In this document: positions 1 through 1,028 of the stretch, one piece after another | Layout of the letters: the number at the start of each line of letters is the position of its first letter | How positions within the stretch are numbered: the stretch's first letter is position 1 | Source of the DNA: Naegleria gruberi | Taxonomy: Eukaryota | Strand: one strand, 5' to 3' | DNA length: 1,028 nucleotides | Assembly: GCA_000004985.1 (NCBI GenBank) | Contig: GG739607.1 | The notes under the pieces: model-generated | Seen by the model: only the letters and a program-made list of their open reading frames with translations | Told to the model about the DNA's origin: nothing | Database searches by the model: none | Program-made: the position numbers and the translations under genes

Positions 1-189
1 ATCATTATTTTCAGAGTAAATATGGAATTGAAAGTTTCGTATTGTCTTTCCTCTTAATTGTTGCTTTAAAAAATTATTCGAAAGATGATCCGATAAAATG
101 ATTGTATGATGATCAGCCTCTTCCTCCCCATGATGAACAACACAAGACTTCTGGTGATTGAATTTGGTTTTCTTCAGTGGTGATTCCAT
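1..189 (-). CDS. 5' portion of a protein-coding ORF. The start codon is the complement of 'cat' at 187-189, and 63 codons stay open to the window edge (3' end lies outside the window). Hypothetical Lys/His-rich N-terminus: MESPLKKTKFNHQKSCVVHHGEEEADHHTIILSDHLSNNFLKQQLRGKTIRNFQFHIYSENND...
   Basis: Reverse complement of 1-189 reads ATG GAA TCA CCA CTG AAG AAA ACC ... in one frame with no stop for 63 codons. The ATG sits in an A-run (aaaaaaaaaATGG). The N-terminus and 5' flank resemble the plus-strand ORF at 931, which argues this is a real gene start rather than a random ORF. I could not tell whether an intron interrupts it. Confidence 0.5.
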   Translation of the reverse strand, partial: MESPLKKTKFNHQKSCVVHHGEEEADHHTIILSDHLSNNFLKQQLRGKTIRNFQFHIYSENND

Positions 190-203
190 TTTTTTTTTAA
201 AAA
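189..203. repeat. Homopolymer tract T10 followed by A5 (ttttttttttaaaaa), directly abutting and overlapping the minus-strand start codon
   Basis: Read directly from positions 189-203. In minus sense it forms the A-rich context immediately 5' of the ATG. Confidence 0.8.
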
Positions 204-213
204 TTGTTCCTCA
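204..213 (-). promoter_or_regulatory. Conserved 5'-flank element TGAGGAACAA (minus sense), 17-26 nt upstream of the minus-strand ATG
   Basis: Reverse complement of plus 204-213 'ttgttcctca'. It aligns with TGAGGGACGAACAA at 908-921 upstream of the plus-strand ATG. Both are followed by a T/A-run and then ATGGAA. Confidence 0.4.
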
Positions 214-244
214 TATTGAATAATCCCGCGCTTTTCAATTTTAC

Positions 245-260
245 AACAACCAAAAAAAAT
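245..260 (+). repeat. Copy 1 of an exact 16-nt direct repeat aacaaccaaaaaaaat
   Basis: Exact 16/16 match to 917-932 on the same strand. Low-complexity A8 core, but the aacaacc prefix matches as well. Confidence 0.7.
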
Positions 261-281
261 TTATAATACCGATTATTATAC
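261..281 (-). promoter_or_regulatory. TATA-like elements for the minus-strand gene (minus-sense TATTATAAAT and GTATAATAATC), ~75-95 bp upstream of the ATG at 189
   Basis: Plus strand 261-281 'ttataataccgattattatac' reverse-complements to 'gtataataatcggtattataa'. This is a canonical TATAAA-type box in the correct orientation and at a plausible distance. I found no comparable TATA within 150 bp of the plus-strand ATG. Confidence 0.35.
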
Positions 282-595
282 ACTACAATTTTTCGAATCT
301 ATTCAGATTCTCGACCAAGCACTCTTGTGATGGTGTACTTTTGGAGTGTGTATCGTAGGAACAAAGTTCATTCACAGCTTCGTCATTGGACGGGGACTTT
401 TAGGAGTGGAGTTATCGCCTAGCCTTTAAGTTGCATAGTTGGAAACTAACCAAGAGTTAGACCGTGACTAATGGAAACCATAGGGAAAGTAAACATCGCG
501 AAATAATAGAAAATTAAATGGGGAAGCATCTGAAATATCTGTCAAGGATATCGAGAAGGTGATCCAATACCATCTCTTACGCTGCAATAAAATTC

Positions 596-603
596 TTACG
601 TAA
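596..603. promoter_or_regulatory. Perfect 8-bp palindrome TTACGTAA, the core of PAR/bZIP-type (RTTACGTAAY) and Yap/CREB-like binding sites. Candidate transcription-factor site in the middle of the shared intergenic region.
   Basis: cTTACGTAAc at 595-604 matches 9/10 of the PAR bZIP consensus RTTAYGTAAY. It lies roughly equidistant from the two start codons (~330 and ~410 bp). Confidence 0.3.
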
Positions 604-907
604 CGTTCTACAATATCTATTCTCTTTGATTATATTCTTATAAAATTTCCTTTCTGTTCATAATTAAATCATTACTCTCCACGCCTCGGTATCTTTACAT
701 TGTTTTGCCCGTGCTAAACTAAAGAAACCTGCTTTAAATCTTTGACAGAAGATAGCTATATGTTATTCTACAGACAAGAATAAACAATAGTTTGAATCCA
801 TCTAAACCTCGATGCCGAAAGTTACAGCGATAGTCTAGCGCTGTGCTACTTGCATCTTGGTCAATCTAGAAAACCGCACAAACGTACTAGACGTTGAGGT
901 ATTTTTT

Positions 908-921
908 TGAGGGACGAACAA
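908..921 (+). promoter_or_regulatory. Conserved 5'-flank element TGAGGGACGAACAA, 10-23 nt upstream of the plus-strand ATG (counterpart of 204-213)
   Basis: Shares TGAGG..AC..AACAA with the minus-gene flank apart from 1-nt and 2-nt indels. The position relative to the ATG is conserved in both copies. Confidence 0.4.
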
Positions 922-932
922 CCAAAAAAAAT
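917..932 (+). repeat. Copy 2 of the exact 16-nt direct repeat aacaaccaaaaaaaat. This copy forms the -14..+2 context of the plus-strand ATG.
   Basis: Exact match to 245-260. The terminal 'at' is the first two bases of the ATG at 931-933. Confidence 0.7.
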
Positions 933-1028
933 GGAACCACTTCGCAAGAAGAAAAAGATTCCCCATGATGATGTCTGCTTTGGCAGCATTGTGAAGGAAG
1001 AAAATAATCATCACAATGACGAAAATGA
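931..1028 (+). CDS. 5' portion of a protein-coding ORF: ATG at 931-933, 32 codons plus 2 nt open to the window end. Hypothetical basic N-terminus: MEPLRKKKKIPHDDVCFGSIVKEENNHHNDEN...
   Basis: ATG follows an A8 run (ccaaaaaaaATGGAA). The frame atg gaa cca ctt cgc aag aag aaa aag att ccc cat gat gat gtc tgc ttt ggc agc att gtg aag gaa gaa aat aat cat cac aat gac gaa aat ga has no stop to the window end. About 13 of ~30 aligned residues match the minus-strand ORF at 189-1 (MEPL, KKK, H, C, EE, HH), and both begin ATGGAA. Confidence 0.5.
   Translation, partial: MEPLRKKKKIPHDDVCFGSIVKEENNHHNDEN

Follow-up and report, generated by a model that had tools for sequence, protein, structure and literature searches.

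Described head-to-head paralogues include the collagen IV gene pairs of the COL4A1/COL4A2 type, the hsp-16 pairs of C. elegans, and the hsp70 genes at 87A in Drosophila. Mammalian bidirectional promoters are typically GC-rich, CpG-island sequences, and the genes that they serve are usually unrelated to each other. The head-to-head arrangement is a frequent outcome of local duplication; in the rows for vertebrates and C. elegans of table 2 in a general survey (PMC3194840), its share of linked gene duplications is about 10-21%. Bidirectional gene pairs in general are defined by transcription start sites (TSSs) separated by at most 1000 bp (PMC2688522).

The 1,028-nucleotide stretch of DNA considered here (the window) contains the starts of two similar open reading frames, ORF A and ORF B, which are encoded on opposite strands, have their 5' ends toward each other, and read outward to the edges of the window. 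The window probably represents the 5' ends of two divergent paralogous protein-coding genes derived from an old inverted (head-to-head) duplication; this reading, drawn from the sequence, is held with moderate confidence and is weighed below against four alternatives.

Layout of the locus

As the initial annotation had described, ATGGAA following an A-run opens both ORF A and ORF B. In each of them the start codon sits in the context AAAAAAAATGG, with A at -3 and G at +4. Coordinates of the ORFs and of the other features discussed here are given in Table 1. The stop-free runs to which the ORFs belong, of 70 codons for ORF A and 43 codons for ORF B, are not outliers within the window. An antisense stop-free stretch of 63 codons is also present.

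Table 1. Positions of features in the 1,028-nucleotide window
Feature	Position	Strand	Description
ORF A, 5' part	189 to 1	minus	ATG at 189; runs for 63 codons to the window edge without a stop (MESPLKKTKFNHQKSCVVHHGEEEADHHTIILSDHLSNNFLKQQLRGKTIRNFQFHIYSENND)
ORF B, 5' part	931 to 1028	plus	ATG at 931; runs for 32 codons to the window edge without a stop (MEPLRKKKKIPHDDVCFGSIVKEENNHHNDEN)
Spacer between the two ATGs	190-930	none	741 bp, non-coding
Left arm of inverted duplication	107-196	minus	A-run, ATG, and codons 1-28 of ORF A; blastn
Right arm of inverted duplication	924-1013	plus	A-run, ATG, and codons 1-28 of ORF B; blastn
Basic cluster KKTK	163-174	minus	ORF A codons 6-9, after Pro-Leu; read from the sequence
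Basic cluster RKKKK	943-957	plus	ORF B codons 5-9, counterpart of KKTK in ORF A; read from the sequence
TATA-like hexamer TATAWA	260-265	minus	71-76 nt upstream of the ORF A ATG; pattern scan, consensus match only
Exact 16-mer direct repeat AACAACCAAAAAAAAT, copy 1	245-260	plus	Upstream of ORF A and antisense to it
Exact 16-mer direct repeat AACAACCAAAAAAAAT, copy 2	917-932	plus	Last 14 nt of the ORF B leader and AT of the ATG

Inverted similarity between the ORF starts

The first ~30 codons of ORF A and ORF B are related well beyond chance, as had been claimed initially. When the window is compared with itself by blastn, the two arms (107-196 against 1013-924) align over 93 columns at 68.8% identity (E=2e-5), with the same E-value when DUST is on, and a repeat search of the window pairs the arms as well (inverted pairs I1 and I2). 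The Smith-Waterman score of the arms is 23, compared with 11.6±1.6 in dinucleotide shuffles, none of which (0/1000) reached it. Along the ungapped diagonal anchored at the two ATGs, 48 of 98 nucleotides are identical against an expected 27% (binomial p=3e-6), and local alignment of the two proteins scores 45 with BLOSUM62 (p=0.0002-0.0014 by residue shuffling).

A resemblance by chance between two purine-rich, Lys/Glu/His-rich stretches has some points in its favor: purines make up 54-60% of both arms, AAG, GAA, and CAT codons are abundant in them, and the similarity was picked post hoc from a scan of many windows. The codon-shuffle null bears on this directly, as it retains the Lys/Glu/His codon content and was applied to the ATG-anchored diagonal, which was specified in advance. 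Under this null 31.7±4.0 nucleotides are identical against 48 of 96 observed (p=6e-5), and 3.4±1.5 residues are identical against 11 of 32 observed (p=4e-5). Because the null does not reach the observed values, richness in Lys/Glu codons is insufficient as an explanation; the similarity is not confined to low-complexity Lys/Glu codons, an outcome that the initial annotation had named as fatal to its own reading. With the dinucleotide shuffles and the DUST-resistant match also against it, chance resemblance is close to refuted.

Two details of the earlier alignment are revised. The segment atggaa(tca)ccact, which had been given as 14/14 identical, comprises 11 letters outside the indel, or 18 if the shared upstream A's are included. 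The reported ~13 identities with a 1-codon indel are indeed 13, provided that two compensating one-codon indels (Ser3 in A and Arg5 in B) are admitted; ungapped alignment gives 11 identities in 28-32 positions.

Evidence for coding sequence in the arms

Several properties of the arms point to protein-coding sequence. The shared frame is open in both copies, which holds for neither of the other two sense frames, and 6 of the 11 conserved residues are specified by different synonymous codons. Conservation is lowest at third codon positions (41%, against 52-55% at the others), and the 11 conserved residues observed compare with 6.7±1.7 under random mutation to equal divergence (P=0.013). GC content at the three codon positions is 0.44/0.24/0.30 in ORF A and 0.53/0.19/0.44 in ORF B, so that both ORFs have the periodicity GC1>GC3>GC2; the spacer is flat across codon positions. 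Upstream of the ATGs identity falls to background (23/70), with nothing shared beyond the A-run. An end of the similarity at the A-run is expected under a coding reading, because only selected coding sequence would have been kept.

The arms could instead be a decayed non-coding repeat in inverted orientation, such as the terminal inverted repeats (TIRs) of an old non-autonomous DNA transposon, a foldback element, or a dispersed repeat, in which case the ATG-led ORFs would be incidental. The +1 frame is nearly as conserved as the shared frame (9/32 residues and a BLOSUM sum of 33, against 11/32 and 36), and block-wise DNA conservation could therefore account for much of the residue identity; the ordinary length of the ORFs and the lack of any protein homologue in the searches fit this explanation as well. 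A 7-nt direct repeat, AAAATGA, lies outside both arms (95-101 and 1022-1028) and is readable as a target-site duplication, but its copies are not directly adjacent to the ends of the arms at 107 and 1013, and a 7-mer match is unremarkable at 35% GC. The right arm ends 15 nt before the end of the window, and its outer boundary is outside view. A non-coding repeat does not readily explain why the similarity starts exactly at both start-codon contexts and runs outward in a shared frame that is open where the other sense frames have stops, nor does it explain the synonymous type of the differences at conserved residues or a GC periodicity that is found in both arms and not in the spacer. As for the multiple copies or relatives that a transposon with TIRs or a miniature element (MITE) would have, nothing related in DNA or protein turned up in the phage, plasmid, viral, metagenome, and prokaryote-genome collections. 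Taken together, these points make a non-coding repeat unlikely.

Coding arms could also have a different origin, in which two diverged copies of a single mobile-element gene (such as a transposase, gag, or ORF1) were inserted head to head, without a local inverted duplication, and the ORFs are where these copies begin. Like many element-encoded proteins, both have basic, NLS-like N-termini that look orphan, and no cellular family was matched. Two copies of an element gene would, however, be expected to share a 5' UTR, LTR, or TIR upstream of the ATG, where no similarity is present, and neither Pfam nor the six-frame protein search gave a transposase or gag match, a weak argument given that 63 and 32 residues are visible. 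This origin is quite unlikely.

The inverted repeat might also be transcribed as a single RNA that folds into a long hairpin and yields small RNAs, as a hairpin RNA or proto-miRNA derived from inverted duplication of a gene 5' end. Inverted duplication is a described route of miRNA gene origin, and the arms cofold at -57.8 and -61.9 kcal/mol, with z about -7.4 against shuffled arms. Strong cofolding is automatic here, because the arms are inverted repeats. Complementarity between the arms is only 69%, with numerous bulges, the loop would measure 727 nt, the spacer has neither a structure signal nor an Rfam match, and divergence follows codon positions and does not preserve base pairs. A hairpin RNA is thus highly improbable.

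The protein-coding reading of both ORFs, based on frame openness, synonymous differences, and GC periodicity, is favored but not proven, and we infer that both ORFs are translated. The description of the locus as divergently transcribed paralogues stands for the homology, in view of the shuffle statistics, and for the head-to-head layout; the status of paralogous genes rests on 32 aligned codons.

The spacer and candidate regulatory sequences

The spacer has 35% GC with poly(dA:dT) tracts and presumably holds both promoters and both 5' UTRs. It contains no ORF longer than 53 codons, no long or convincing gene under alternative genetic codes 4, 6, 10, and 25, no protein match in any frame, no tRNA, and no Rfam family beyond sub-threshold chance matches. 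Folding of the 320-560 segment gives no RNA structure signal (z-scores of +0.37 and +1.52), and tandem repeats were not found in the window.

A TATA-like hexamer precedes ORF A (Table 1); for ORF B there is none within 280 nt, and the closest one, on the plus strand, is at 639. Besides the A-run, the only element common to both upstream sides is the 16-mer AACAACCAAAAAAAAT, whose two copies (E=0.022 by in-window blastn) face opposite ways with respect to the two genes. The possibility that the 16-mer at 245 opens a third, decayed copy of the gene was considered and rejected, as no similarity follows beyond it. Co-regulation of the two genes from the spacer, proposed in the initial annotation, has no sequence support: upstream identity is at the background level given above, and arm-symmetric similarity within the spacer does not rise above chance (best inverted pair E=0.44 by in-window blastn).

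The start context, the lack of a Shine-Dalgarno sequence, the long spacer with poly(dA:dT), and the TATA-like box together fit a eukaryotic gene pair, and the source is probably a eukaryote with a compact, AT-rich genome. A bacterial reading was rejected on the absence of terminators and of a Shine-Dalgarno sequence at proper spacing; sigma-70-like sites number 8 against 3.3±2.1 expected, which is unremarkable for AT-rich DNA. The Mimivirus-type early promoter octamer AAAATTGA occurs once on the upstream side of ORF A (235-242, minus strand), about 46-53 nt from its ATG, and is absent upstream of ORF B; the match was dismissed as being at chance level, with 46 of 200 shuffles as good. A giant-virus gene pair was likewise rejected: neither the 741-bp spacer nor the 35% GC is typical of one, and no relative was found among viral contigs.

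N-terminal motifs

Residues conserved between ORF A and ORF B are Met-Glu, Pro-Leu followed by a basic cluster (KKxK / RKKKK), His12, Cys16, Glu-Glu, and His27-His28. A classical monopartite nuclear localization signal (NLS) has the form K-(K/R)-x-(K/R), as in PKKKRKV of SV40 T antigen. PLKKTK in ORF A and PLRKKKK in ORF B match this pattern at the same aligned position. The NLS-type motif suggested earlier therefore holds as a pattern in both copies, and ORF A and ORF B resemble classical signals by pattern only; nuclear targeting is a putative role of the basic patch.

Each of the four His/Cys residues in copy B (H12, C16, H27, and H28) has a His or Cys opposite it in copy A. The initial annotation had speculated on metal or nucleic-acid binding from the His/Cys content; however, no zinc-binding family was matched. 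Pfam gave no family at E<=10, PDB gave nothing meaningful, and the conserved H-x3-C-x10-HH corresponds to no family that could be identified. A single-sequence AlphaFold2 model of ORF A is of low confidence (pLDDT 49.7). The conserved residues suggest a short N-terminal segment, probably unstructured, with a candidate nuclear-targeting basic patch ahead of a domain that would lie mostly outside the window.

In a bolder version, the ORFs would belong to a lineage-restricted family whose conserved N-terminal module joins a nuclear-targeting basic patch to a four-ligand His/Cys arrangement (H-x3-C-x10-HH) and binds metal or nucleic acid, and the head-to-head layout would have been kept through the 16-mer AACAACCAAAAAAAAT and poly(dA:dT) as common regulatory elements; this is very unlikely.

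Searches for relatives

Protein and profile searches of the kind that had been proposed for identification of the family were run on the visible parts of the ORFs and left it without detectable relatives. No accepted protein match was obtained for either ORF or for any frame of the window among 5.8 billion clusters or 1.84 billion representatives, and a word-indexed protein search with ORF A gave no match. The sole match of an exhaustive HMMER search of the 1.84 billion representatives, P0001, is a 775-aa tandem-repeat protein aligned in 9 weak stretches at 24% identity and was set aside as a repeat artefact. The 29 six-frame stop-free segments, joined as one query, gave nothing at E<=10, and Pfam, PDB, and PHROGs gave nothing meaningful.

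At the DNA level, blastn of the window against phage and plasmid collections gave no match, and an exact 22-mer (403-424) is absent from viral, prokaryote-genome, and metagenome contigs. Back-translated ORF A patterns, searched in the same three kinds of contig, gave only pattern matches that were negative by tblastn. The orphan status may simply reflect short, fast-evolving N-terminal tails in a eukaryote that is unsampled or unannotated.

Proposed origin of the gene pair

According to the favored reading, an old inverted duplication would have given rise to the head-to-head gene pair. Since the duplication, silent sites and all flanking non-coding DNA would have drifted close to saturation, leaving recognizable similarity only from the start context (A-run, ATGG) through ~28 codons of the N-terminal tail. 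Each gene would probably have its own promoter within the 741-bp spacer; co-regulation to some degree would be possible through the common spacer, but is not demonstrated by the sequence.

If this is correct, the locus adds one more local inverted gene duplication with a common intergenic region and leaves the general picture unchanged. It is unusual solely in that very large protein and DNA collections contain no detectable relative of either ORF or of any frame of the window. For annotation of the genome it offers two likely start codons, a reading frame, and a conserved N-terminal motif with basic and His/Cys residues.

Comparison with known systems

The locus resembles the TIRs of DNA transposons, MITEs, and foldback elements in having two inverted arms of ~90 nt around ~730 nt of non-coding DNA. 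It differs from such elements in that the arms carry co-framed, outward, ATG-led ORFs, the AAAATGA repeats lie apart from the arm ends, no transposase is found, and arm identity is 69%.

With respect to bidirectional promoter pairs, the ATG-to-ATG distance of 741 bp is inside the limit of 1000 bp; that limit concerns TSSs, and these should be separated by less than 741 bp provided that ORF A and ORF B are both first coding exons. Mammalian bidirectional promoters are unlike the spacer described here, which has 35% GC with poly(dA:dT) and is flanked by homologous ORFs.

Known head-to-head paralogues are full-length, transcribed, and characterized genes that often have duplicated promoter elements, whereas in this locus the view is limited to 32-63 codons, the two sides have no promoter sequence in common, and no family was matched. 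Like those pairs, it consists of related ORFs that diverge from neighboring 5' ends on the two strands, with 741 bp between them, and homology runs from the start codon.

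Two outward-reading ORFs with similar starts

The window (1028 bases, 35% GC) carries, as first annotated, one ORF per strand, ORF A and ORF B, each beginning at an ATG after an A-run and reading outward. The two have in common the start context AAAAAAAATGGAA, with the A-run before the ATG and a G after it. The spacer between the ATGs is 741 bases long, and its longest stop-free stretch is at most 53 codons; the lengths of ORF A and ORF B are not outliers for the window, and ORF B is itself overlapped by 63 codons of antisense sequence with no stop. Opposite ORF B, all three antisense frames stay open for 46-63 codons, owing to the purine-rich plus strand; ORF calling therefore lists antisense ORFs of 59 and 42 aa, neither with a database match, which are probably composition artefacts.

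Features of the two ORF starts and the spacer between them
Feature	Position	Strand	Details
ORF A	189 to 1	minus	63 codons from ATG, stop-free up to window edge; product MESPLKKTKFNHQKSCVVHHGEEEADHHTIILSDHLSNNFLKQQLRGKTIRNFQFHIYSENND
ORF B	931 to 1028	plus	32 codons from ATG, open at window end; product MEPLRKKKKIPHDDVCFGSIVKEENNHHNDEN
Inverted arm pair	170-196/924-950		27 nt, 81%; repeat search
Inverted arm pair	107-130/990-1013		24 nt, 75%; repeat search
Exact 16-mer direct repeat AACAACCAAAAAAAAT	245-260 and 917-932	plus	in-window E=0.022
Exact 12-mer direct repeat TCCCCATGATGA	125-136 and 960-971	plus	in-window E=1.2
Short uORF (ATG AGG AAC AAT TTT TAA)	208-225	minus	5 codons, ATG at 225
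Mimivirus-type early promoter octamer AAAATTGA	235-242	minus	about 46-53 nt upstream of ORF A ATG
TATA-like hexamer	260-265		71-76 nt upstream of ORF A
Poly(dA:dT) tracts	189-198, 252-259, 902-908, 924-931		
Antisense frames and ORFs opposite ORF B	838-1027	minus	

The match between the ORF starts is not due to composition. In a sensitive self-blastn both arm pairs merge into one inverted match (107-196 versus 1013-924; 93 columns, 68.8% identity, in-window E=2e-5), which is the same with the DUST low-complexity filter on. Smith-Waterman comparison of the window ends scores 23, versus 11.6±1.6 for 1000 dinucleotide-preserving shuffles, the best of which reaches 18. On the ATG-anchored ungapped diagonal 48 of 98 bases are identical (27% expected; p=3e-6); all other diagonals have at most 40% identity. 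Lys/Glu codon richness, which the initial annotation had named as the finding that could undo its reading, is ruled out as the cause by a null in which codons were permuted inside each ORF: 31.7±4.0 bases are identical versus 48 observed (p=6e-5), and 3.4±1.5 residues versus 11 (p=4e-5). The resemblance is real by all of these measures, and the shuffles, the ATG diagonal and the codon permutations nearly exclude pure chance as its source, which is very improbable. Its initial description needs correction in detail: 'atggaa(tca)ccact' has 11 identical letters, not 14, and 13 residue identities can be reached, but at the price of two compensating one-codon indels, the ungapped alignment giving 11. 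The 12-mer repeat, which falls in codons I-P-H-D-D of ORF B in the sense direction and reads V-H-H-G-E where it runs antisense to ORF A, is probably chance.

Possible coding signals and the conserved N-terminal tail

Evidence on the arms leans towards protein-coding sequence, but is thin. Among the three sense frames of the shared diagonal, the ATG frame alone is stop-free in both copies. Different synonymous codons are used at six of the 11 conserved residues (K7, K9, H12, C16, E24, and H28), and identity is lowest at third codon positions (41% versus 52% and 55%). When copy A was randomly mutated to the observed divergence, 6.7±1.7 residues were kept, versus 11 observed (P=0.013). Both ORFs have the coding-type pattern GC1>GC3>GC2 (0.44/0.24/0.30 for GC1/GC2/GC3 in ORF A; 0.53/0.19/0.44 in ORF B), whereas the spacer is flat (0.38/0.35/0.33). 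Against a coding reading stand the unremarkable ORF lengths and the conservation of the +1 frame, which nearly equals that of the ATG frame (9 of 32 residues; BLOSUM sum 33 versus 36) because the DNA identity is block-wise.

The arms could instead be transposon termini or a non-coding inverted repeat that has decayed, a reading for which the right arm, ending 15 nt from the window edge, leaves room. A direct 7-mer, AAAATGA, just outside both arms (95-101 and 1022-1028, plus strand) resembles a target-site duplication; its copies do not abut the arm ends, and the right one ends at the window end, 1028. The co-framed, ATG-led ORFs and the codon-position signals are opposed to this origin, which is unlikely. 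A hairpin-RNA locus is very improbable: arm pairing beats shuffles (z about -7.4), as that of any inverted repeat would, but complementarity is 69% and the loop would be 727 nt.

The residues conserved between the copies are M1, E2, (P, L), K6, K7, K9, H12, C16, E23, E24, H27, and H28. The classical monopartite nuclear localization signal (NLS) has the pattern K-(K/R)-x-(K/R); both copies match it after a proline, giving a predicted NLS. Each of the four His/Cys residues of copy B is aligned to a His or Cys of copy A, and these positions matched no known metal-binding family in Pfam or PDB sequences. An AlphaFold2 model of ORF A, made without an alignment, is of low confidence (mean pLDDT 49.7; residues 1-25 below 50), which would be compatible with a disordered tail and is uninformative alone.

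The spacer

None of the genetic codes tried reveals a gene in the spacer. Searches of it for Rfam families (above threshold), tRNAs, and tandem repeats were negative, and no Shine-Dalgarno sequence was found at working distance from the ATGs. Its centre (300-560) is GC-richer than either side (0.43-0.44 versus 0.26-0.36), and both GC skew and AT skew are positive at 400-550; no ORF, Rfam family or protein match in any frame was found there, and neither strand of 320-560 folds better than its shuffles. A single CGCGAAA (497-503) resembles a yeast SCB/MCB-type cell-cycle box. Observed/expected dinucleotide ratios in the window are 1.01 for CpG (not depleted), 0.71 for TpA (depleted), 1.17 for AA/TT, and 1.19 for GA/TC.

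The short uORF ends 18 nt ahead of the ORF A start codon; transcription starting near the TATA-like box would place it in the 5' UTR. A giant-virus reading of the Mimivirus-type octamer was rejected as chance level: the site is single, 46 of 200 shuffles contain at least one match, and ORF B has none.

At ORF B, the 16-mer repeat makes up the leader and continues into the start codon; its second copy is found 56-71 nt upstream of ORF A, antisense to that ORF. Extension into a third gene copy was not possible in the in-window comparison. Candidate explanations for the 16-mer are a promoter element of poly(dA:dT) type common to both ORFs, a remnant of a third copy, and chance aided by the A-run. 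Arm-symmetric similarity is absent from the spacer (best internal inverted pair 538-560/727-749, E=0.44), and with the 16-mer oppositely oriented there is therefore no positive sequence evidence of shared regulation, which proximity alone would permit.

Database relatives

Word-indexed protein search with ORF A gave no candidate. Exhaustive HMMER comparison with 1.84 billion representatives yielded a single protein (P0001), a 775-aa tandem-repeat sequence with nine weak stretches at 24% identity, rejected as a repeat artefact. With the 29 stop-free segments of all six frames combined into a single query, there was no hit at E<=10; therefore no window frame resembles any recorded protein, and about 5.8 billion protein clusters gave no match to any frame. 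Pfam, PDB sequences, and PHROGs gave no meaningful match, and phage and plasmid records none to the window DNA. Viral, prokaryote-genome, and metagenome contig collections lack a unique spacer 22-mer, and back-translated ORF A patterns brought up no relative in them. This absence, the gene-free 741-bp spacer without a Shine-Dalgarno sequence, the A-rich start context with G at +4, the poly(dA:dT) tracts, the TATA-like hexamer, and the CpG and TpA ratios weakly suggest, from 1 kb of sequence, a compact, AT-rich nuclear genome of a eukaryote, probably one that these databases lack or carry without annotation.

Origin of the pair and comparison with known gene pairs

Similarity does not extend past the A-run: over 70 bases upstream of the ATGs, 23 are identical, which is background. 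This favours coding sequence, being expected if only selected sequence outlived an old duplication. Most likely, an ancestral gene was copied locally in inverted orientation to give two divergent paralogues; neutral sequence would then have drifted past recognition, and similarity would persist in the start context and in the roughly 28 residues of an N-terminal tail. That the ORFs are two diverged copies of one mobile-element gene is quite unlikely, since neither termini nor domains of such an element turned up, although little protein is visible. The initial observation is confirmed and its interpretation partly supported: head-to-head layout and homology speak for divergent paralogues, and co-regulation is the part left without positive sequence evidence.

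The pair is an ordinary kind of feature, unusual solely in that very large databases contain nothing similar. Head-to-head paralogue pairs are a frequent outcome of local duplication and account for about 10-21% of the linked duplication events that table 2 of PMC3194840 lists for human, mouse, zebrafish, and C. elegans; a bidirectional promoter arrangement is by standard definition one of divergent genes with 5' ends within 1000 bp (PMC2688522). The ORF A/ORF B locus has both the layout and the homology of such a pair.
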